A stretch of DNA of 37,360 bases from a virus (lineage: Duplodnaviria; Heunggongvirae; Uroviricota; Caudoviricetes). How positions within the stretch are numbered: the stretch's first letter is position 1; every line of letters begins with the position of its first letter. A program made the position numbers and the translations under genes. Below are positions 6,793 through 17,717 of this stretch, one piece after another. The stretch lies in IMG/VR virus record IMGVR_UViG_2541047905_000010. One strand, written 5' to 3'. A model generated the notes under the pieces. It worked only from the letters and a program-made list of their open reading frames with translations, did no database searches and had not been told where the DNA came from.

Positions 6793-6867
6793 GGCTGAAC
6801 TCCTGAAAATGGCTGTGAAAATATCGCCCGCGAAATGCCAGGCTGATTAGGAAAACAGGAAAGGGGA

Positions 6868-7158
6868 TTAGCGATTCAGGCCGTTACCGCGTCCGTCGAG
6901 AAAAACTTCCACGAGCAAATCACGGGTATAAGTGCGCTCGATGCCGCGATGCAGATAAAGCCGTCCGCGTAAATTAGCTGATGCAGTCCAGGTACCATCT
7001 TTGTGTTTGACCAGCATTCCTGGCATGACCGCACCTCGATTAACGGTCTGCGTTCCGTAATGTTGATGAACCATAAAAACTCCTGCCCGTAAGCTGGGCT
7101 GCTGAACATATAGAGACTTCTGCGCGTATTCAGGCGGTGGATGGCCGCCGGTTGTCAT
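6868..7158 (-). CDS. Hypothetical protein in the first-gene position of the leftward early operon (96 aa from ATG; track ORF extends to 7278 from TTG with an Arg-rich N-terminus)
   Basis: Only substantial minus-strand ORF between the candidate pL/OL and gam; not recognisably N, kil or cIII. Confidence 0.35.
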
Positions 7159-7295
7159 AACTAAGTCGCCTCGTTGAAGCGACTGAGGTATGAAGTGTTG
7201 AGTTGATTTCAGCTGGTCACACCGACGTTCACGCGTCCGCTTCACCCCTCGCACTCCCCGAAGCCTGCTGAAATTCAAACTGCGGATCTAAGCGG

Positions 7296-7347
7296 TCATC
7301 GCAACGGTGAAACAGGTGGTTACCGTATCGTTGTGTCGTTGCGATGA
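7296..7347 (-). promoter_or_regulatory. 11-bp perfect inverted repeat (tcatcgcaacg / cgttgcgatga) with 30-bp spacer, in the leader of the leftward early transcript
   Basis: Read directly from the sequence; no U-tract follows, so it is not an intrinsic terminator. Confidence 0.3.
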
Positions 7348-7363
7348 ATTTATTTAAAACTAT

Positions 7364-7430
7364 AGTTGTTTTATCGTCAACAACAAAAGTTGTTTTGTCG
7401 GTTGTTTTAAATATAACTGGTTGTATTTAG
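7364..7430 (-). promoter_or_regulatory. Candidate OL/pL operator-promoter region
   Basis: gttgtt-N8-aacaac at 7365-7384 has the same half-sites as the palindrome between the repressor and cro-like genes; further GTTGT repeats follow at 7389-7425. Confidence 0.35.
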
Positions 7431-7516
7431 GATGGATTTATTTTGTGACTTGCATCGCATAGCGATAACTGAAGTGAGGTGTGGTGGTTTTTTGGACGGT
7501 ATGAGTTATGAGGGGG

Positions 7517-7546
7517 AGGAAAAGAAAACCCGGCGCGGTTGCCGGG
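7517..7546 (-). terminator. Intrinsic terminator downstream of the lipoprotein gene
   Basis: Minus-strand RNA: CCCGGC-AACCGC-GCCGGG followed by UUUUCUUUUC, 9 nt after the stop codon. Confidence 0.65.
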
Positions 7547-7554
7547 TATGATTA

Positions 7555-7935
7555 TCAGTCAGCCCAACCTGATTTCGAGTTTATTTGGGTTTCTGACATT
7601 GTGTATTTCTTAATCGTGTCATCGTTAAAAAGAATAGTAAGTTCTTTTTTCGTACCGTTCGTTCCATTATGGAATAATCCATAGAATGGAATAAAAGTGG
7701 TGCCATTAACTTTTACTTTTGCAAAGGCGTACTTCCAGATCTCGTTTCCACTGTCAGTATATGAAACAGCATCAGGAGAACCAAAGTAAGATTTAACCTC
7801 ATTCTTGGTTGTTTTACCTTCCTGAAGTTTAGACTGGACACTAATTTCAGTTTCATTTTTGAGTTGCTGGTTGCCTGAAGAAGCACACCCAGCCAATACA
7901 GATGCCATCATGGCAGCGATTAGGATTTTTCTCAT
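7555..7935 (-). CDS. Lipoprotein (signal peptide with LAGC lipobox), BamE/OmlA-like fold suspected; lysogenic-conversion moron
   Basis: MRKILIAAMMASVLAGCASS...; AT-rich codon usage; sits directly downstream of the repressor gene on the same strand and has its own terminator. Confidence 0.8.
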   Translation of the reverse strand: MRKILIAAMMASVLAGCASSGNQQLKNETEISVQSKLQEGKTTKNEVKSYFGSPDAVSYTDSGNEIWKYAFAKVKVNGTTFIPFYGLFHNGTNGTKKELTILFNDDTIKKYTMSETQINSKSGWAD

Positions 7936-8164
7936 TTTATGTTTCCATTCATTATAATCAGAAACATCTTAACATAATGATTCGAAATAAAAACCGCTAC
8001 GAGATAGGGGGACATTTTGCTGACAGTAGCAACAAATCTCAGCTAACAACGAGAATATTTACTGAAATATGCAAACAGATTTGGCGTTCTTATAGAGAAT
8101 TTAGTGCAATATCTAATCCGAGTGGTATAAACCTTAACCTTCGCTCCCTTAAGTCGTAGATAAA

Positions 8165-8854
8165 TTAACCATGCTTCCTGTACGTCTGCGGCATGCTTCC
8201 AATGACCTTACCGAATATGAACACCCGGTTCATCTCGTCTTTCTCGATCGGGTCCCACGGCGAGTAGCTCTTGTTATCAGAGATAACCAGCAGCTTATCC
8301 TTCATCATTTGAAGACGTTTTACATGGGCAGTGTCGTCGTACAGAAACGCATAGATGCCATCACCGTCGAAAGATTTAACAGTGATATCAACGAACAGCA
8401 GGTCACCTGGTTCGATCGTCCCTGACATGCTGTCACCTCGCACGTTAATGATGCGGATATTTTCCGCCTTCCTGCCATCGAACATGTGACGAGCATCGTC
8501 AAACGAGTACTCAACCGAGCGTAGAACTTCTACAAACTCACGGTTGATTACACCTGGCCCGGCACTGACTTCTATATCAAGAACGTCAATTTTGAAGTAT
8601 TTGGAATGGCTGACAGTTGATTGTATTGGTTGCACTGTACTGTCTGACATATTTCCAACGCCAGAAGATAACCATTCTGCGCGCACACCCAAAGCGTTCG
8701 CGATCTCCACGATTTTAGTTGTTTGGTTAGCTTTCCCTGTTTCGATTTTCTGAATAGCAGCCTGGCTAACCCCGACCAAATCCCCAAGCGCCTTTTGTGT
8801 AAGGCCTCGCGCTAATCTGGCTTCTTTAAGTCTTTCTGAGAGTGTTGTTTTCAT
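8165..8854 (-). CDS. Prophage repressor, HTH (XRE) + S24 LexA-like peptidase domain (CI-type, not lambda cI)
   Basis: 229 aa; N-terminal LTQKALGDLVGVSQAAIQKIETGK helix-turn-helix; C-terminal Ser/Lys autocleavage module (GDSMSGT...KRL); divergent from the cro-like gene. Confidence 0.9.
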   Translation of the reverse strand: MKTTLSERLKEARLARGLTQKALGDLVGVSQAAIQKIETGKANQTTKIVEIANALGVRAEWLSSGVGNMSDSTVQPIQSTVSHSKYFKIDVLDIEVSAGPGVINREFVEVLRSVEYSFDDARHMFDGRKAENIRIINVRGDSMSGTIEPGDLLFVDITVKSFDGDGIYAFLYDDTAHVKRLQMMKDKLLVISDNKSYSPWDPIEKDEMNRVFIFGKVIGSMPQTYRKHG

Positions 8855-8958
8855 AGATCAAATGTACAACCAAGGTTTTATTTCATCAAACGAAAATGGT
8901 TGTTGACTAAAAACAACCATAGTTTTAATCTTGATTCGGATTAACCACGGAGGTTGTT
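8855..8958. promoter_or_regulatory. OR / pRM-pR divergent promoter-operator region
   Basis: Palindrome atggttgtt-gactaaa-aacaaccat at 8896-8920 overlapping a TTGACT -35-like hexamer; further ACAACC/GGTTGT half-sites at 8866-8876 and 8952-8957. Confidence 0.6.
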
Positions 8959-9189
8959 ATGAACCCAGCAATCAAAACAGCGATCAATATCGTTGGTTCA
9001 CAAAAGAAACTAGGCGATGCCTGCGAAGTTTCACAGCAGGCCGTCTATAAGTGGCTTCACAACAAAGCAAAGGTATCCCCTGAACATGTCGGCAGCATTG
9101 TTACGGCTACTGGTGGAGTTGTGAAGGCATACCAGATTCGCCCGGATCTTCCGAAGTTGTTTCCACACACCGAAAAGAACGCAGCTTAA
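8959..9189 (+). CDS. Cro-like regulator (YdaS/Cro family HTH)
   Basis: 76-aa ORF divergent from the repressor; GGAGG ribosome-binding site; resembles Rac/CP-933P YdaS-type Cro. Confidence 0.8.
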   Translation: MNPAIKTAINIVGSQKKLGDACEVSQQAVYKWLHNKAKVSPEHVGSIVTATGGVVKAYQIRPDLPKLFPHTEKNAA

Positions 9190-9201
9190 ATTTCCATTTC
9201 A

Positions 9202-9213
9202 CGCTCTTTAACA
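9202..9213 (+). promoter_or_regulatory. boxA-like antitermination element (CGCTCTTTAACA)
   Basis: Matches the boxA consensus GCTCTTTAACAA at the position expected for nutR (just downstream of cro); no obvious boxB hairpin follows. Confidence 0.4.
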
Positions 9214-9258
9214 ATAAGCAATCAACTTAACAGTCAATTCAAACTAAAGGAGTCAATT

Positions 9259-9798
9259 ATGCAACCACTTACATACCAACAGACTAGCGGATTTATTCCG
9301 ACTGCGGTGATAAATCGTTCTCAAACAAAACAAGCTCCAGGCCACGAAAAAATCCGTGATGCCGTCCGCGCCTGGTCGGCTGTAGATAATCAGGATGTCG
9401 TTGCCGCACTCATTGTGAATGAGTATCGGGAGCAGGGCGACGGCACCATCGATTTCCCTGATGATGTCAGCCGTGCACGCCAGAAGCTGTTCCGCTTCCT
9501 CGATAACAAATTCGATTCTGAAAAATACCGAAATAACGTGCGTGAACTGACCCCGGCAATTCTGGCGGTACTACCGCTGGAATATCGCGGTTACCTGGTT
9601 GAGCAGGATAGCTTCATGACTCGGTTGGCTGAAATGGAAAAGGAACTCAGTGAGGCAAAACAGGCTGTCATTCTCAACGCACCACGCCACCAGAAACTGA
9701 AGGAAATGAGTGAAGGTATTGTGTCGATGTTTCGTGTGGACCCGGATCTGGCTGGTCCATTAATGGCGATGGTGACCACCATGCTGGGGGCAATATGA
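9259..9798 (+). CDS. YdaT-family protein (proposed CII functional analogue)
   Basis: 179 aa; occupies the cII slot; motif LTPAILAVLPLEYRGYL resembles the YdaT family as recalled. Confidence 0.65.
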   Translation: MQPLTYQQTSGFIPTAVINRSQTKQAPGHEKIRDAVRAWSAVDNQDVVAALIVNEYREQGDGTIDFPDDVSRARQKLFRFLDNKFDSEKYRNNVRELTPAILAVLPLEYRGYLVEQDSFMTRLAEMEKELSEAKQAVILNAPRHQKLKEMSEGIVSMFRVDPDLAGPLMAMVTTMLGAI

Positions 9799-9884
9799 CA
9801 GGTTCAGAAATGGCGAAAGTCGGTCTGCGGGAACAGAACCGACTTTCAGGTGCAAATCGTAACACACTCATTGCGGGAGGAATT

Positions 9885-10814
9885 ATGGCAAACACTGCTG
9901 AGATATTCAATTTTCCAGTGCCGGATGCGGCACAAAAGGAGCCGCGCGTGGCAGATCTCGATGATGGTTATACGCGCATTGCAAATGAGTTGCTGGAAGC
10001 TGTGATGCTGGCCGGATTAACACAGCACCAGCTTCTGGTCTTCCTGGCTGTCATGCGCAAAACATATGGCTTTAATAAAAAACTGGATTGGGTGAGCAAC
10101 GAGCAACTTTCCGAGTTGACCGGGATATTGCCGCACAAGTGTTCTGCTGCAAAAAGCGTTCTGGTAAAGCGTGGGATTCTTATTCAGAGCGGGCGGAATA
10201 TCGGCATTAATAATGTGGTCAGTGAATGGTCAACATTACCCGAATCAGGTAAGAAAAATAAAGTTTACCTGAAAGAGGTAAATTTACCTGAATCAGGTAA
10301 GAAAAGTTTACCCAAATCAGGTAAAGGCGTTTACCCGAATCAGGTAAACACAAAAGACAAACTAACAAAAGACAATATAAAACCTTTTTCGTCCGAGAAT
10401 TCTGGCGAATCCTCTGACCAACCAGAAAACGATCTTCCTGTGGAGAAACCAGATGCTGCAATTCAGAGCGGCAGCAGGTGGGGGACAGCAGAAGACCTGA
10501 CCGCCGCAGAGTGGATGTTTGACATGGTGAAGACCATCGCGCCATCAGCCAGAAAACCGAATTTTGCAGGGTGGGCTAACGATATCCGCCTGATGCGTGA
10601 ACGTGACGGACGTAACCACCGCGACATGTGCGTGCTGTTCCGCTGGGCATGCCAGGACAACTTCTGGTCCGGTAACGTGCTAAGTCCGGCCAAACTCCGC
10701 GACAAGTGGACCCAACTCGAAATCAACCGTAACAAGCAACAGGCTGGCGTGACAGCCGGAAAATCAAAACTCGACCTGACAAACACTGACTGGATTTATG
10801 GGGTGGATTTATGA
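9885..10814 (+). CDS. O: Replication initiator O (lambda O family); track ORF starts at 9795
   Basis: N-terminal region VADLDDGYTRIANELLEA...RKTYGFNK matches lambda O; ori iterons embedded in the coding sequence; GGAGG ribosome-binding site before ATG 9885. Confidence 0.9.
   Translation: MANTAEIFNFPVPDAAQKEPRVADLDDGYTRIANELLEAVMLAGLTQHQLLVFLAVMRKTYGFNKKLDWVSNEQLSELTGILPHKCSAAKSVLVKRGILIQSGRNIGINNVVSEWSTLPESGKKNKVYLKEVNLPESGKKSLPKSGKGVYPNQVNTKDKLTKDNIKPFSSENSGESSDQPENDLPVEKPDAAIQSGSRWGTAEDLTAAEWMFDMVKTIAPSARKPNFAGWANDIRLMRERDGRNHRDMCVLFRWACQDNFWSGNVLSPAKLRDKWTQLEINRNKQQAGVTAGKSKLDLTNTDWIYGVDL
10236..10385. repeat. Origin of replication: four to five ~19-bp iterons (tttacccgaatcaggtaag-type) plus A-rich tract
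   Basis: Direct repeats at about 10236-10253, 10283-10301, 10307-10325, 10329-10347 with a degenerate copy at 10264-10282, then cacaaaagacaaactaacaaaagacaatataaaa. Confidence 0.85.
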
Positions 10815-11828: not shown

Positions 11829-12323
11829 ATGAGAAAATTTATTATAGCCTTTGTCATAAGTGCCTCGTTTACTGCAAATGCTGGTGTAGAGAAGTTAGGG
11901 TCGTGGATAACAAAGTCTGAGATAAATAAAATGACTGACCAGACTGACTTTGTGGCTCTTAATTTATCACCAGATTCATATAACAAAGCAGGTACTGATC
12001 GTGCAACTTCACTGGTGTTGCGTTGTAGTGATAACAAAACAGATGCCTATTTATCATTCAATGATTATATGGGTTCGGACAACCCAAGAATTACAGTGCG
12101 GTTAGATGGCGGAAAGCCGGTCAAGAGTGCTTGGGGAGGTGGGGAAGGCGGTGATTCTGCATTTGCTCCACAACCAATACAATTTATAAAGACCTTGGCT
12201 AAGCATAAAAAAGCTATTTTTGGGTTTGAACCTTATGGATCAACTATGCAAGTAGTTGAGTTTGACTTGTCTGAGATTGATAAGGTTGTGGAAAAAATTT
12301 CACAGTCTTGCAATTGGAAATGA
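11829..12323 (+). CDS. Secreted/periplasmic hypothetical protein (Sec signal peptide, two Cys); AT-rich moron
   Basis: 164 aa; MRKFIIAFVISASFTANA signal peptide; AAGGAGA ribosome-binding site; followed by an intrinsic terminator; lower GC than the flanks. Confidence 0.7.
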   Translation: MRKFIIAFVISASFTANAGVEKLGSWITKSEINKMTDQTDFVALNLSPDSYNKAGTDRATSLVLRCSDNKTDAYLSFNDYMGSDNPRITVRLDGGKPVKSAWGGGEGGDSAFAPQPIQFIKTLAKHKKAIFGFEPYGSTMQVVEFDLSEIDKVVEKISQSCNWK

Positions 12324-13105: not shown

Positions 13106-13120
13106 GGTAATGACTCCAAC

Positions 13121-13624
13121 TTATTGATAGTGTTTTATGTTCAGATAATGCCCGATGACTTTGTCATGCAGCTCCACCGATTTTGAGAACGACAGCGACT
13201 TCCGTCCCAGCCGTGCCAGGTGCTGCCTCAGATTCAGGTTATGCCGCTCAATTCGCTGCGTATATCGCTTGCTGATTACGTGCAGCTTTCCCTTCAGGCG
13301 GGATTCATACAGCGGCCAGCCATCCGTCATCCATATCACCACGTCAAAGGGTGACAGCAGGCTCATAAGACGCCCCAGCGTCGCCATAGTGCGTTCACCG
13401 AATACGTGCGCAACAACCGTCTTCCGGAGCCTGTCATACGCGTAAAACAGCCAGCGCTGGCGCGATTTAGCCCCGACATAGCCCCACTGTTCGTCCATTT
13501 CCGCGCAGACGATGACGTCACTGCCCGGCTGTATGCGCGAGGTTACCGACTGCGGCCTGAGTTTTTTAAGTGACGTAAAATCGTGTTGAGGCCAACGCCC
13601 ATAATGCGGGCTGTTGCCCGGCAT
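13121..13624 (-). CDS. insB: IS1 transposase InsB (expressed as InsAB' by -1 frameshift)
   Basis: 167-aa ORF matching IS1 InsB from memory ([58 protein letters not shown]...). Confidence 0.93.
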
Positions 13625-13818
13625 CCAACGCCATTCATGGCCATATCAATGATTTTCTGGTGCGTACCGGGTTGAGAAGCGGTGTAAGTGAACTGCAGTT
13701 GCCATGTTTTACGGCAGTGAGAGCAGAGATAGCGCTGATGTCCGGCGGTGCTTTTGCCGTTACGCACCACCCCGTCAGTAGCTGAACAGGAGGGACAGCT
13801 GATAGAAACAGAAGCCAC
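13543..13818 (-). CDS. insA: IS1 InsA (transposition inhibitor / N-terminal part of InsAB')
   Basis: 91-aa [45 protein letters not shown]... Confidence 0.93.
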
Positions 13819-13873
13819 TGGAGCACCTCAAAAACACCATCATACACTAAATCAGTAAGTTGGCAGCATCACC

Positions 13874-13882
13874 GTGAGCCTA
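13874..13882. repeat. IS1 target-site duplication, right copy (gtgagccta)
   Basis: Identical to 13097-13105. Confidence 0.9.
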
Positions 13883-14144
13883 TTAACCCAAACGAAGAAG
13901 AAAAACTTTATAGGCTTTGGTATGAAGGAAACGCTTGAAAGAATAAAGCACAATTAAAACCTTTGATTTGCGATAATCAACTTGCCATAATTAAGTAATC
14001 GGAGCCTGAACAACTCCGGTGACTTCTGCGCTAAACGGGGACGTTTATGCGCACATACAATCCAAACTATCTTCTCCTTTCACAGATGCAGAAATGCACC
14101 TGCAATTCTTTGCATCTAGCGTTTGACCTCTGTGGAGGTGAAGC

Positions 14145-14600
14145 GTGAACCTCCCACAAGATGGCATCAAATTGCATCGCGGTAACTTCACCGCTATCGG
14201 TCAGCAGATCCAGCCTTATCTGGAAGACGGCAAATGCTTTCGCATGGTGCTTAAACCGTGGCGAGAGAGACGCAGTCTTTCCCAGAATGCACTCAGCCAC
14301 ATGTGGTACAGCGAAATCAGTGAATACCTCATCAGCAGGGGGAAATCGTTCGCTACCGCAGCATGGGTAAAAGATGCTCTCAAACACACATACCTCGGTT
14401 ATGAAACCAAGGACCTGGTTGATGTCGTAACCGGCGAAATCACTACTATCCAGTCGTTACGCCATACCTCCGATCTTGATACCGGAGAGATGTATGTCTT
14501 CCTGTGTAAGGTTGAAGCCTGGGCGATGAATATTGGCTGCCACCTGACTATTCCGCAGAGCTGCGAGTTCCAGCTGCTGCGCGACAAGCAGGAGGCGTAA
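14145..14600 (+). CDS. ninB: NinB-family recombination protein (DLP12 YbcN-like)
   Basis: 151 aa with GTG start; [20 protein letters not shown] motif typical of the NinB family; first gene of the nin module. Confidence 0.75.
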
Positions 14601-15549: not shown

Positions 15550-15634
15550 AGTCAGAGATAACAATCAACTAATACTGTTTTGTTGATTTTTGCTTGTAAT
15601 TGGCGTTCTGGTCTGATTTTTGTGGAGTAAGTTG

Positions 15635-16018
15635 ATGCGTGATATTCAGATGGTTCTTGAGCGTTGGGGAGCGTGGGCGGCTAATAATCATGAAGATGTG
15701 ACCTGGTCGTCCATTGCCGCCGGTTTTAAGGGATTAATTACTTCAAAAGTAAAATCTCGCCCGCAATGTTGTGACGATGACGCTATGATCATTTGCGGGT
15801 GCATGGCCCGTCTGAAAAAGAACAACAGCGATTTGCACGATTTATTAGTAGATTATTATGTAGTCGGTATGACATTCATGTCACTGGCAGGTAAGCATTG
15901 CTGCTCTGATGGTTATATCGGGAAAAGGTTACAGAAGGCTGAGGGCATAATTGAAGGGATGTTAATGGCATTAGATATCCAGTTAGAGATGGATATCGTT
16001 GTTAATAACTCTAATTAA
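15635..16018 (+). CDS. Q: Late-gene antiterminator Q (DLP12 QuuD-like, 127 aa from ATG)
   Basis: Position between rusA and the lysis genes; cysteine-rich ([16 protein letters not shown]); track ORF begins at an upstream TTG. Confidence 0.8.
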
Positions 16019-16207: not shown

Positions 16208-17290
16208 TTAGAACTGGTAAACCAGACCTACAGCGACGATGTCGTCGGTATCAATATCAGCTGTTTTGGTAAACTTACTATCGTCAATTAAGTTGATTTT
16301 GTAATCAACAAAAGTGGACATGTTTTTATTAAAGTAGTAAGTAGCACCGACATCGACATACTTGACTAAGTCTCGGTCACCATGAACACCAAGGTCTTTA
16401 CCTTTTGACTGAAGGTAAGCAACAGATGGGCGCAGACCGAAGTCAAACTGATATTGTGCTACTGCTTCAAAGTTTTGTGCTTTGTTTGCAATATGGTTAT
16501 TACCAAAAACGGTCATATTCTGAGTTTCAGAATATGTGGTAGCCAGATAGATATTGTTCGCATCATATTTCAGGCCTGCAGCCCATACTTCCGCATTTTT
16601 GCCGGAGGCATTGAATTTGCTCTTACCATAGGCGACCTGACCGTCAGTGCGATCTGATTTAGCATAGGTTGCACCCACGCCGAATCCTTCATACTCATAA
16701 GTAGTGGAGAAACCGAAACCATCACCATTGGCTTCAGTTACGTCAGTGCGGTCATTTTTACCCTGATACTGAGCAGCAAAGTTCAGGCCATCGACCAGAC
16801 CAAAGAAGTCGTTGTTACGATAAGTTGCAACACCAGTAGTGCGACCAGTCATGAACACATCTGTTTGGGTCCAGGTATCACCACCGAATTCTGGCAGAAC
16901 GTCAGTCCACGCACCGATGTCGTATGCTACACCGTAGTTACGGCCGTAATCGATTGAGCCGTAATCACCAAATTTCAGGCCTGCAAATGCAAGACGGGTT
17001 TTGTCTTTGGAAGAACCTTGAGATTCAGCGCGGTTGCCTTTGAATTCATATTCCCACTGACCGAAACCAGTCAGTTGATCGTTGATTTGGGTTTCACCTT
17101 TGAAGCCAAGACGGGCATAAGTAGTATCACCATCATCTGCATCATTAGAGGAGAAGTAGTGCTTAGCATTAACTTTCCCGTACAGATCCAGCTTGTTACT
17201 GTCTTTATTATAAATTTCAGCTGCCTGAGCAGACATCGCCATCAGTACTGATGCAGCTACAGCAGAAATTGCCACTGTTAATTTTTTCAT
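16208..17290 (-). CDS. nmpC: Outer-membrane general porin, NmpC/Lc (OmpC/OmpF/PhoE family), intact; lysogenic-conversion moron
   Basis: 360 aa from [23 protein letters not shown] (signal peptide) to C-terminal ...VAVGLVYQF; track ORF adds 20 spurious N-terminal codons. Confidence 0.95.
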
Positions 17291-17717
17291 CGTGAGCCCT
17301 TTTTTTGAACTATTATTAAAAAATGATGTCACTGCGCGATAAATATTCATCTAATCAATGTGATTATTTCAAGATGTAAGTTTTGGTTTCTCGTTTGATT
17401 TGTGAAGTAGATCTCTATTTTTATCTGAACTTTTTTCTATCGAATCCTATTCATGGCTCTTGGCTGAATAAAAATAAATCTATTAGCCAATTTATATTAA
17501 TGGCTGTTATTTATAAGTGCTCTATAATTTGAAGGTTCAATTTAAATCGGCTAAAAATAACGCTGGAAATTATTTGTTGGTTATTTGTTGAGATTTGCTT
17601 ATGTATTTGTAGTGGTGTTTTCAATACTCGGTAGCATTCTCGCAAATATCATTTAGTGGTTTACGTACGTAAAAAATTGGTTATGCTGTTAAGAGTGGTT
17701 ACTTCGTCACACAGCTT

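Follow-up and report, generated by a model that had tools for sequence, protein, structure and literature searches.

What kind of lysis/lysogeny switch is encoded in this stretch of viral DNA, and how much of its operator logic can be read from the sequence? The locus had been predicted to hold an immunity region of the YdaS/YdaT type rather than the lambda type, controlled through a palindrome between its divergent genes. Within the window (the whole 37,360-nt stretch analysed here), we consider it probable that this locus controls lysis and lysogeny in a lambdoid E. coli prophage, Bievrevirus/phi80-like and to all appearance largely intact, and that it works through 14-bp operators.

Gene content and relatives of the immunity region

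Phage PhiR26_1 (NCBI accession no. PV340555.1) shares 99.9% DNA identity with the window over positions 7200–9900, and 58 complete E. coli genomes match with at least 80% coverage. The same immunity is found in PhiR26_1, PhiR5_1, PhiR34_1, PhiR47_2, IdasGreatGrand and Turner, and the genes of the PhiR26_1 group are annotated as cI, Cro, cII, O and P. PhiR5_1 encodes the same cI (with an earlier start annotated in its record), and its Cro and CII are 96–99% identical to those of the window. The main features of the region are as follows.

7344–7439, minus strand: left arm of the immunity region, with OL and PL
7528–7547, minus strand: intrinsic terminator at the end of the cI–moron transcription unit, found by a terminator-like scan
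7555–7935, minus strand: lipoprotein moron gene (126 aa) in the rexAB position, from the ORF list
8165–8854, minus strand: cI repressor gene (229 aa), 434-like HTH and S24 autocleavage domain
8959–9189, plus strand: cro gene, YdaS family (76 aa; PF15943)
9259–9798, plus strand: gene for the CII analogue, YdaT family, phi80 type (179 aa; PF06254)

The cro gene is the first of the rightward operon, divergent from cI and separated from it by 104 bp, and is followed by cII and by the O and P replication genes. In PHROGs, the repressor matches transcriptional repressor and CI-like repressor families (phrog_4 and phrog_6201), the 76-aa protein a transcriptional repressor family (phrog_35), and the 179-aa protein a family named “CII-like transcriptional activator” (phrog_163, E 1e-66). 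The terminator has a 7-bp stem with six G-C pairs and a T run, and is conserved in 4A7 and PhiR5_1. The moron product is named a SEN1984 family lipoprotein or BamE in RefSeq; its BamE match is weak (E 1.6e-4, below cut-off), and it also matches phrog_3135. Its slot between cI and OL holds HipA/HipD, GevT/GevA or ASCH genes in relatives, HipA/HipD or GevT/GevA being the occupants in other phages of the same immunity.

A 434-like, probably cleavable repressor

The 229-aa protein had been described as a LexA-like HTH-S24 repressor, and Pfam bears this out with HTH_3 at residues 9–62 (E 5e-13) and Peptidase_S24 at residues 95–218 (E 1e-18), both above cut-off. Its N-terminal domain aligns with the 434 repressor without gaps (E 4.5e-9). 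The equivalents of 434 Gln28 and Gln17 are kept, whereas recognition-helix residues differ (QAAIQK vs QQSIEQ), the C-terminal domain is not comparable in PDB matches, and 434 Cro belongs to another family than the Cro of the window. The protein carries Ala98-Gly99, Ser142 (in GDSM) and Lys179 (in VKRL), which by analogy with LexA and lambda cI we take to be the cleavage site and the catalytic dyad. Judged by these features, it is a lambda/434-type S24 cI and is predicted to be SOS-cleavable.

The assignment to the YdaS/YdaT type holds for the cro and cII slots only. Both CP-933P (PaaR2-YdaS-YdaT) and Rac (RacR-YdaS-YdaT) have a YdaS-type Cro and a YdaT-type CII in the same slots as the window, and alignment to Rac gave 30% identity for YdaS (E 1e-8) and 34% for YdaT (E 3e-11). 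RacR, however, shows no similarity to the 229-aa repressor (best E 2.3 over 6 residues). The repressors of Rac and CP-933P are small and not of the S24 type, unlike that of the window, PaaR2 being compared by its description as a ~15 kDa protein (PMC8630535). Since the repressor is lambda/434-type S24 and unlike RacR, the module is, as far as sequence can define it, best named phi80-type: a presumably cleavable cI, a YdaS-type Cro and a phi80/YdaT-type CII. In phi80 (X13065, NC_021190) the gene order is the same (cI, gene 30, cII), the repressor is also of the S24 type and the Cro analogue is YdaS-like, but phi80 cI is just 24% identical to that of the window and gene 30 is barely similar to its Cro. 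The classification of the module is correct yet already known, as the prophage is in databases and YdaS and YdaT have been published as Cro and CII analogues.

Predicted operators at OR and OL

The palindrome at 8896–8920 exists as predicted (ATGGTTGTT-N7-AACAACCAT, with perfect 9-nt arms). Its GTTGT/ACAAC half-sites do recur at 7365–7384, although they are nine nucleotides apart at OR (N9) and ten at OL (N10), a difference that bears on how the palindromes are read. The pattern GTTGT-N(8-11)-ACAAC occurs just twice in 37 kb (8899–8917 and 7365–7384; 0.15 expected), and GTTGTT, with 37 occurrences against 21 expected, clusters at 7365–7406 and 8844–8958. The operator logic first read from the palindrome has to be revised: the 25 bp are most likely not one operator. 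Two neighbouring 434-like operators of 14 bp, OR2 and OR1, would each contribute a strong inner half-site to it, and these halves flank the predicted PR -35. The predicted 14-bp sites are listed below, with centres given relative to the cI ATG.

7356–7369: predicted OL1, minus-strand ACAACTATAGTTTT, one mismatch to ACAAC-N4-GTTGT
7380–7393: predicted OL2, ACAACAAAAGTTGT, perfect arms, no mismatch
7411–7424: possible weak OL3, minus-strand ACAACCAGTTATAT, read from the sequence with three mismatches and no statistical support
8866–8879: predicted OR3, ACAACCAAGGTTTT, centre at -18.5
8890–8903: predicted OR2, ACGAAAATGGTTGT, centre at -42.5
8913–8926: predicted OR1, ACAACCATAGTTTT, centre at -65.5
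8944–8957: possible fourth site, ACCACGGAGGTTGT, lying over the ribosome-binding site and start codon of cro, one mismatch to the consensus

The sites in the window follow ACAAC-N4-GTTKT (K = G or T), three at OR and two at OL, and in leave-one-out PWM scans each of these five ranks between 1 and 9 of 37347 positions (OL1 third, OL2 fourth). Matches with at most one mismatch to ACAACNNNNGTTGT number five in the window, all inside OL or OR. The centre of OL2 lies 24 bp from that of OL1, the segment 7354–7372 that holds OL1 is 95% complementary to 8910–8928, which holds OR1, and OR3 is a direct repeat and near-copy of OR1. OR2 is a weak match (two mismatches), and in most sites one of the halves is weak and of the AAAAC type. 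As a third OL operator, neither 7392–7405 nor 7411–7424 is convincing, each having a single good half (ACAACCA in the latter). Operators of 434 are 14 bp long and contain ACAA...TTGT. The DNA-binding domain, the site statistics and the comparison with HK639 and 4A7 are all compatible with a 434-type architecture, in which a 434-like HTH would bind 14-bp dyads, three of them at OR.

The palindrome (GGTTGTT-N7-AACAACC) and its OL counterpart could alternatively each be a single operator for one dimer, so that OR would consist of roughly one strong site over the PR -35. Its perfect arms and the restriction of the spaced half-sites to OR and OL would suit such an arrangement, and proteins of the LexA type are able to bind half-sites separated by more than one turn of the helix. 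We nevertheless regard it as unlikely: the change of spacer between OR and OL is odd for one dimer and normal between two operators, the half-site centres are 14–15 bp apart as against ~10 bp for a 434-like domain, and the site at 8866–8879 would be orphaned despite its near-copy at 8913–8926. Moreover, HK639 and 4A7, whose repressors are homologous, have unambiguous 14-bp palindromes at the same positions.

The cI of HK639 is equal in length to that of the window, 44% identical and near-identical in its recognition helix, while Cro and CII are 63% and 52% identical, respectively. Relative to the start of HK639 cI, perfect 14-bp ATAAC-N4-GTTAT sites, three in all, are centred at -18.5, -42.5 and -67.5, which puts the OR2 of HK639 at the same position as that of the window. 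As its half-site is ATAAC and not ACAAC, HK639 is presumably heteroimmune. The heteroimmune sibling 4A7 is near-identical to the window outside two segments, namely 7344–7439 and a second running from within cI (codons 1–84) via cro to the ydaT ATG. Between kil and the terminator, the window departs from 4A7 in the first of these segments alone, which supports the predicted location of OL at about 7365–7384. In 4A7, 14-bp sites of the ATACGC-NN-GCGTAT type are found at -19.5, -44.5 and -69.5, and between the window and 4A7 cro changes together with OR, OL and the N-terminal domain of cI. Read at sequence level, the swap boundaries delimit exactly a specificity unit made up of OL, OR, cro and the N-terminal part of cI. 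The operators of phi80 are of a different kind, being 19 bp long and of the AATCAACA...TGTTGATT type. Repeats shared between OR and OL are also a feature of the CP-933P and Rac regions. Our literature search turned up no experiments on this type of immunity or on the operators of Bievrevirus.

Promoters and the proposed switch

A simple consensus promoter scan called none of PR, PL and PRM, and their positions were set by comparison with HK639, in which PR (TGGACA-17-TATCTT) is placed relative to OR2 and OR1 as in the window.

7352–7380, minus strand: predicted PL, -35 TTGACG (7380–7375), 17-bp spacer, -10 TTAAAT (7357–7352)
8861–8889, minus strand: predicted PRM, -35 TTGATG (8889–8884), 17-bp spacer, -10 TACATT (8866–8861)
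8903–8931, plus strand: predicted PR, -35 TTGACT (8903–8908), 17-bp spacer, -10 TAATCT (8926–8931)

The layout of PL parallels that of PR, whose -10 is poor. Transcription is predicted to start near 8938 from PR and near 7345 from PL. The predicted +1 of PRM coincides with the first base of the cI start codon (A, 8854), which would make the cI mRNA leaderless; no Shine-Dalgarno sequence precedes the ATG, and HK639 cI has the same -10-to-ATG geometry without a leader. Leaderless cI-like mRNAs have been documented in lambda and in CP-933P (PMC8630535).

In the switch that we propose, cI dimers would bind 14-bp sites 23–24 bp apart, three at OR (8866, 8890 and 8913) and at least two at OL (7356 and 7380). 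Occupancy of OR1 and OR2 would block PR, as the -35 TTGACT sits in the spacer between them, and occupancy of OL1 and OL2 would block PL. Because OR2 is centred at -42.5 from the leaderless cI start, cI bound there could activate PRM, as in lambda. At high cI levels, or when Cro binds, OR3 (-18.5) would serve to turn PRM off. DNA damage would lead to induction through RecA-stimulated cleavage of cI. Once a cell is infected, establishment of lysogeny would be promoted by the YdaT-type CII, as it is by lambda CII; the protein is probably tetrameric and would work through YdaT-box-like sites.

The circuit is not a one-to-one copy of lambda, as tblastn detected no N homologue and no cIII was noticed in the ORF list. 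The N search used phi80 N and lambda N and gave no match in the window. An N gene is also absent from the inspected deposited relatives PhiR26_1, PhiR5_1 and 4A7, which makes its absence a trait of the lineage and not decay. Of the N gene, the nut sites and the oop-like M3 RNA of phi80, no counterpart was found in the window. The ORF at 6868–7278 has an Arg-rich N-terminus (KRTRERR) that is N-like in look. Rfam scans of 6800–9900, of 13900–14200 and of the whole window returned no credible family, and the PL leader, considered as a put-like RNA, folds without unusual stability (z = -1.2). The cro–cII spacer is AT-rich and contains a boxA-like sequence.

9203–9214, plus strand: boxA-like GCTCTTTAACAA, an exact match to what we take to be the rrn boxA consensus and the sole good one in the window

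The IS1 copy that interrupts the ren–ninB region, a difference from the PhiR26_1 group, could, together with the missing N gene, suggest a cryptic prophage whose switch is dead and whose repeats are functionless relics. This is very improbable given that every ORF of the switch is intact, as are the integrase (135–1205) and Q (15620–16018), that N is lacking from the inspected relatives as well, and that the near-identical PhiR26_1 is a deposited phage genome whose record names E. coli K-12 as host.

The Cro and CII analogues

The first rightward gene had been called a YdaS-type Cro and the 179-aa protein in the cII slot a YdaT-family member, and both assignments are confirmed by Pfam. The 76-aa protein matches YdaS_toxin (E 6.6e-17, 61.5 bits against a cut-off of 30) and also P22_Cro (E 7e-5), while the 179-aa protein matches YdaT_toxin (E 4e-30, 104.5 bits against a cut-off of 21) and is 66% identical to phi80 CII over its full length (180 aligned positions, E 7e-92). 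The AlphaFold2 monomer model of the latter is all-helical (pLDDT 78), and its top Foldseek matches are the CP-933P YdaT structures 3c4r and 8bt1 (probability 1.0, TM 0.63–0.66). In the model, a long helix comes after a POU-like HTH domain; the recognition helix QKLFRFLD resembles QKIFRWLD of CP-933P YdaT, with which the protein shares the fold, its overall identity to Rac and CP-933P YdaT being only 27–34%. The statement in the original prediction that YdaT has been proposed as a functional analogue of CII is correct (PMC8630535, PMC9986795), and the function of homologues has been described in the literature (PMC8630535, PMC9986795, PMC11879457).

That the two genes form a toxin-antitoxin pair and are not Cro/CII-type regulators, as the Pfam names “Bacterial toxin YdaS/YdaT” and the toxicity of ectopically expressed Rac ydaS and ydaT (PMC5700377, PMC5700373) might suggest, is scarcely credible, because their place between cI and O is that of cro and cII, the phi80 CII that the 179-aa protein resembles is genetically defined, the predicted fold is the DNA-binding POU-like HTH also seen in 8bt1, and the YdaS and YdaT of CP-933P and Rac are proven transcription factors that do not form such a pair (PMC8630535, PMC11879457, PMC5917428).

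Candidate YdaT boxes

In Rac and CP-933P, the YdaT box lies at the ydaS/ydaT junction, whereas the only perfect box of the window lies 4.7 kb downstream, in the nin region. No good match to the cognate box TTGATT-N6-AATCAA was found at the cro/ydaT junction or the ydaT start. There are imperfect matches at 9208–9225 (three mismatches) and 8931–8948 (two mismatches), and matches with two or three mismatches are near chance overall (28 vs 19 expected). One further site may be a PRE-proximal target.

9307–9324: YdaT-box-like GTGATA-N6-TCTCAA in ydaT codons 17–22, candidate PRE-proximal site, two mismatches to TTGATW-N6-WATCAA

Phage mEp237 has ATGATA-N6-AATCAA at the same position, a comparison confounded by protein-coding constraint. 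For PRE itself, several weak leftward -10 candidates occur at 9274–9299, none of them convincing or conserved in phi80. Without a good box at the junction or a convincing PRE, activation of cI synthesis by CII is proposed by analogy only.

13963–13991, plus strand: perfect YdaT box TTGATTTGCGATAATCAA (13963–13980) over a putative promoter upstream of ninB, -35 TTGATT, 17-bp spacer, -10 CATAAT (13986–13991)

This nin box is the sole exact match in the window, and none was found in 100 shuffles. It overlaps the -35 and spacer of the putative promoter, at the head of the nin-Q region. Its half-sites are invariant and its spacer variable in 4A7, PhiR26_1 and Turner, and a box is likewise present in HK639, HK225, CobraSix and phi80, the last having TTGATA-N6-TATCAA and GCCATAAT upstream of ybcN. 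In the record of phage 82, the same hexamers are marked as a putative -35 and -10. The box is followed by a conserved structured leader RNA with the stem-loops SL1 (loop CCUGAACAA) and SL2. From its sequence, the nin-region box (TTGATT-N6-AATCAA) is a candidate CII target. We tentatively suggest, as a possibility less likely to be right than wrong, that in phi80-like lambdoid phages the YdaT-type CII directly controls delayed-early and Q expression at this conserved box, besides acting near its own gene.

Implications

As first formulated, the finding matters little, since it puts the right label on a known lambdoid immunity module that is annotated in near-identical phages. More useful is the corrected operator map, whose predicted sites are directly testable. 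The natural pair of window-type and 4A7-type immunity, together with HK639, offers a change in the specificity of a 434-like domain (ACAAC, ATAAC, ATACGC) at fixed operator geometry. The nin-region YdaT box provides a concrete target for studying possible regulation by YdaT-type CII beyond the establishment of repression. If such control exists, it would be the functional counterpart of lambda PaQ, exerted by operator occupancy and not by antisense transcription.

Identity of the immunity locus

The window is a lambdoid prophage from a known lineage, and the YdaS/YdaT-type classification that had been proposed for its immunity region is correct, but already known. Among characterised immunity regions, that of phi80, rather than that of Rac, is the nearest. 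Escherichia phage PhiR26_1 is 99.9% identical to positions 7200-9900, and is annotated across the matching stretch with Kil, lipoprotein, cI, Cro, cII, O, and P. The same stretch occurs at ≥80% coverage in 58 of 5426 complete E. coli genomes. The heteroimmune sibling phage 4A7 is assigned to the genus Bievrevirus. The three switch genes were recovered at exactly the positions, and in the families, of the original prediction (ORF list, Pfam, PHROGs).

Genes of the switch and lambdoid landmarks
135-1205, intact lambda-type integrase
8165-8854, minus strand, 229-aa cI repressor; Pfam HTH_3 and Peptidase_S24; PHROGs transcriptional repressor/CI-like repressor (phrog_4, phrog_6201)
8959-9189, plus strand, 76-aa Cro; Pfam YdaS_toxin (61.5 bits, cut-off 30), P22_Cro match weaker; PHROGs transcriptional repressor (phrog_35)
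9259-9798, plus strand, 179-aa CII analogue; Pfam YdaT_toxin (104.5 bits, cut-off 21); PHROGs "CII-like transcriptional activator" (phrog_163)
15620-16018, Q antiterminator

The repressor

Over its N-terminal 64 residues, the repressor gives ungapped alignments with the phage 434 repressor (E 4.5e-9) and with 434 Cro. Its C-terminal domain carries the LexA/lambda-cI self-cleavage features Ala98-Gly99, Ser142 (GDSM), and Lys179 (VKRL). No similarity was found between the repressor and RacR of Rac. It is therefore a lambda/434-type cI, predicted to be SOS-cleavable, and, judged by these alignments, not of the small Rac/CP-933P repressor type. The predicted LexA-like HTH-S24 architecture thus stands, but the contrast drawn with lambda does not extend to the repressor itself. 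HK639 cI has the same length and is 44% identical, with a nearly identical recognition helix (SQPAIQK vs SQAAIQK), and the two Cro proteins are 63% identical.

Operators and promoters

The operator logic had originally been read from a 25-bp palindrome at 8896-8920, with half-sites recurring at 7365-7384. Both are present: the arms of the palindrome (ATGGTTGTT-N7-AACAACCAT) are perfect, and GTTGT-N(8-11)-ACAAC occurs in the 37-kb window only at 8899-8917 and 7365-7384 (0.15 expected). The overlooked detail is that the spacer is N9 at OR vs N10 at OL. The 434-like DNA-binding domain suggests 14-bp sites, and five 14-mers of the form ACAAC-N4-GTTKT are found in the window, three at OR, between cI and cro, and two at OL, left of cI.

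Predicted operators
8866-8879, OR3, ACAACCAAGGTTTT
8890-8903, OR2, ACGAAAATGGTTGT
8913-8926, OR1, ACAACCATAGTTTT
7356-7369, minus strand, OL1, ACAACTATAGTTTT
7380-7393, OL2, ACAACAAAAGTTGT

In leave-one-out PWM scans, every one of the five ranks between 1 and 9 among 37347 positions. Matches to ACAACNNNNGTTGT with at most one mismatch also number five, all in OR or OL, the fifth (8944-8957) lying over the cro ribosome-binding site. The top PWM match outside OR and OL is an operator-like 14-mer resembling OR2, ACGATTTTAGTTGT, at 8709-8722 inside the cI coding region.

The decisive comparison for the predicted 14-bp operators is with HK639, which has three perfect ATAAC-N4-GTTAT sites.

Operator centres upstream of the cI ATG
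Window, ACAAC-N4-GTTKT: OR3 -18.5, OR2 -42.5, OR1 -65.5
HK639, ATAAC-N4-GTTAT: OR3 -18.5, OR2 -42.5, OR1 -67.5
4A7, ATACGC-NN-GCGTAT type: OR3 -19.5, OR2 -44.5, OR1 -69.5

The site positions in HK639 and 4A7 indicate that the 25-bp palindrome is most likely made up of two half-sites, the right one of OR2 (ATGGTTGT) and the left one of OR1 (ACAACCAT), on either side of the PR -35. The N9/N10 difference would then reflect the OR2-OR1 gap vs the OL2-OL1 gap. On the PWM ranks and the HK639/4A7 geometry, the single 25-bp operator should be replaced by the predicted 14-bp, 434-like sites.

Inferred promoters and the terminator
PR: -35 TTGACT 8903-8908, 17 bp spacer, -10 TAATCT 8926-8931
PL: TTGACG 7380-7375, 17 bp spacer, TTAAAT 7357-7352
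PRM: TTGATG 8889-8884, 17 bp spacer, TACATT 8866-8861
7528-7547, minus strand, strong terminator closing the cI-lipoprotein unit

A simple consensus promoter scan called none of PR, PL, and PRM. The first T of the PR -35 is also the last base of OR2, and TGGACA of HK639 is placed exactly alike. OR2 at -42.5 and OR3 at -18.5 match the lambda PRM geometry. The cI ATG begins 7 nt downstream of the PRM -10 and has no Shine-Dalgarno sequence, so the cI mRNA would be leaderless, as is known for lambda cI and has been shown for CP-933P paaR2 (PMC8630535).

Immunity boundaries

The cI of 4A7 has the same C-terminal domain as that of the window, identical from about residue 85, and the CII proteins are 97% identical. 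Its cI N-terminal domain differs, Cro identity falls to 47%, and the two OR sequences are unrelated. On the right, the two DNAs re-converge exactly at the ydaT ATG; on the left, from kil to the terminator, 7344-7439 is the sole divergent stretch. As compared here, the divergence has the classical immunity-region pattern, which places OL/PL in 7344-7439 and independently supports the earlier guess of OL there.

Directly after PL, within 6868-7350 on the minus strand, are a conserved 11-bp-stem hairpin (7296-7347) and then kil. The ORF at 6868-7278, for which three different starts are annotated among relatives, has an Arg-rich N-terminus (RGVKRTRERR) upstream of its Kil domain that resembles the arginine-rich motifs of N proteins. 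Searches by tblastn with phi80 N and lambda N as queries found no N gene. Just past cro, at 9203-9214, is GCTCTTTAACAA, with no obvious boxB hairpin; it is a 12/12 match to the rrn boxA core. At this position 4A7, phi80, and HK639 have a GCCGCC..GGCGGC hairpin instead.

The rexAB slot between cI and OL (7555-8164) is a hotspot for morons (accessory genes). It holds a 126-aa SEN1984/BamE-like lipoprotein, separated from cI by a 230 bp AT-rich spacer; near-identical phages carry HipA/HipD, GevT/GevA, or an ASCH gene plus a hypothetical gene. Further morons lie after ren (11829-12323, plus strand), encoding a 164-aa secreted protein that weakly matches VasI (T6SS), and downstream of Q (16208-17350, minus strand), encoding a 380-aa protein that by eye is OmpC/Lc-type porin-like.

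The CII analogue and the nin region

The 179-aa protein is 66% identical to phi80 CII over its full length, 52% to HK639 CII, and 34% to Rac YdaT (E 3e-11); its sequence match to the CP-933P YdaT structures is weak (E 5e-4). The AlphaFold2 model (pLDDT 78) is all-helical, with residues 1-26 disordered, and its sole significant PDB matches are 3c4r and 8bt1, both CP-933P YdaT (probability 1.0, TM 0.63-0.66). Together with the Pfam match, this confirms YdaT-family membership. The recognition helix SRARQKLFRFLD is similar to ARNTQKIFRWLD of CP-933P YdaT. A search for the family returned 714 sequence clusters, mostly enterobacterial among the 120 listed.

YdaS and YdaT of CP-933P and Rac are Cro/CII-like transcription factors, not a toxin-antitoxin pair, and both YdaT proteins bind TTGATT-N6-AATCAA; the original prediction's reading of the literature, with YdaT as a CII analogue, is correct (PMC8630535, PMC9986795, PMC11879457). 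No perfect YdaT box was found at the cro-ydaT junction, and no convincing PRE. Matches with 2-3 mismatches, a level near chance overall, lie at 8931-8948, 9208-9225, and 9307-9324. The last covers ydaT codons 17-22, where mEp237 has ATGATA-N6-AATCAA, a comparison confounded by coding constraint. The establishment step would, by analogy, be CII-driven.

The single exact box in the window, TTGATTTGCGATAATCAA at 13963-13980 (at least one match in 0 of 100 shuffles), lies about 165 bp upstream of ninB, just right of an IS1 copy. This IS1 (about 13107-13874) is inserted in the variable ren-ninB region; InsA (13543-13818) and InsB (13121-13624) are both on the minus strand, and a terminal repeat ends near 13874. 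Across 4A7, PhiR26_1, and Turner, the nin box keeps its half-sites unchanged and varies in its N6 spacer; homology begins at the box. Conservation of the box, again with a variable spacer, extends to HK639 and CobraSix, whose copies are perfect, and to phage 82. In phi80 and HK225 it reads TTGATA-N6-TATCAA, both half-sites having changed symmetrically so that the dyad is preserved, and mEp237 has one mismatch. No box was found at the corresponding loci of lambda and HK97. The box comes with the nin module by shared inheritance, so finding it alongside the CII type does not count as independent evidence.

Upstream of ninB lies a structured leader RNA (13998-14053, the leader reaching 14144; fold z = -4.65). 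Of its two hairpins, the first has the conserved loop CCUGAACAA; the stems covary in phi80, HK639, mEp237, and a Klebsiella phage, and the RNA has no Rfam match. The nin box overlaps a putative promoter, TTGATT-17-CATAAT (13963-13991). In the 1996 record of phage 82, these two hexamers are labelled putative -35 and -10, and the hairpin that follows them is called a "possible regulator-binding site". We tentatively put forward CII control at this putative nin promoter as a candidate, a possible if rather doubtful role for the YdaT-family protein.
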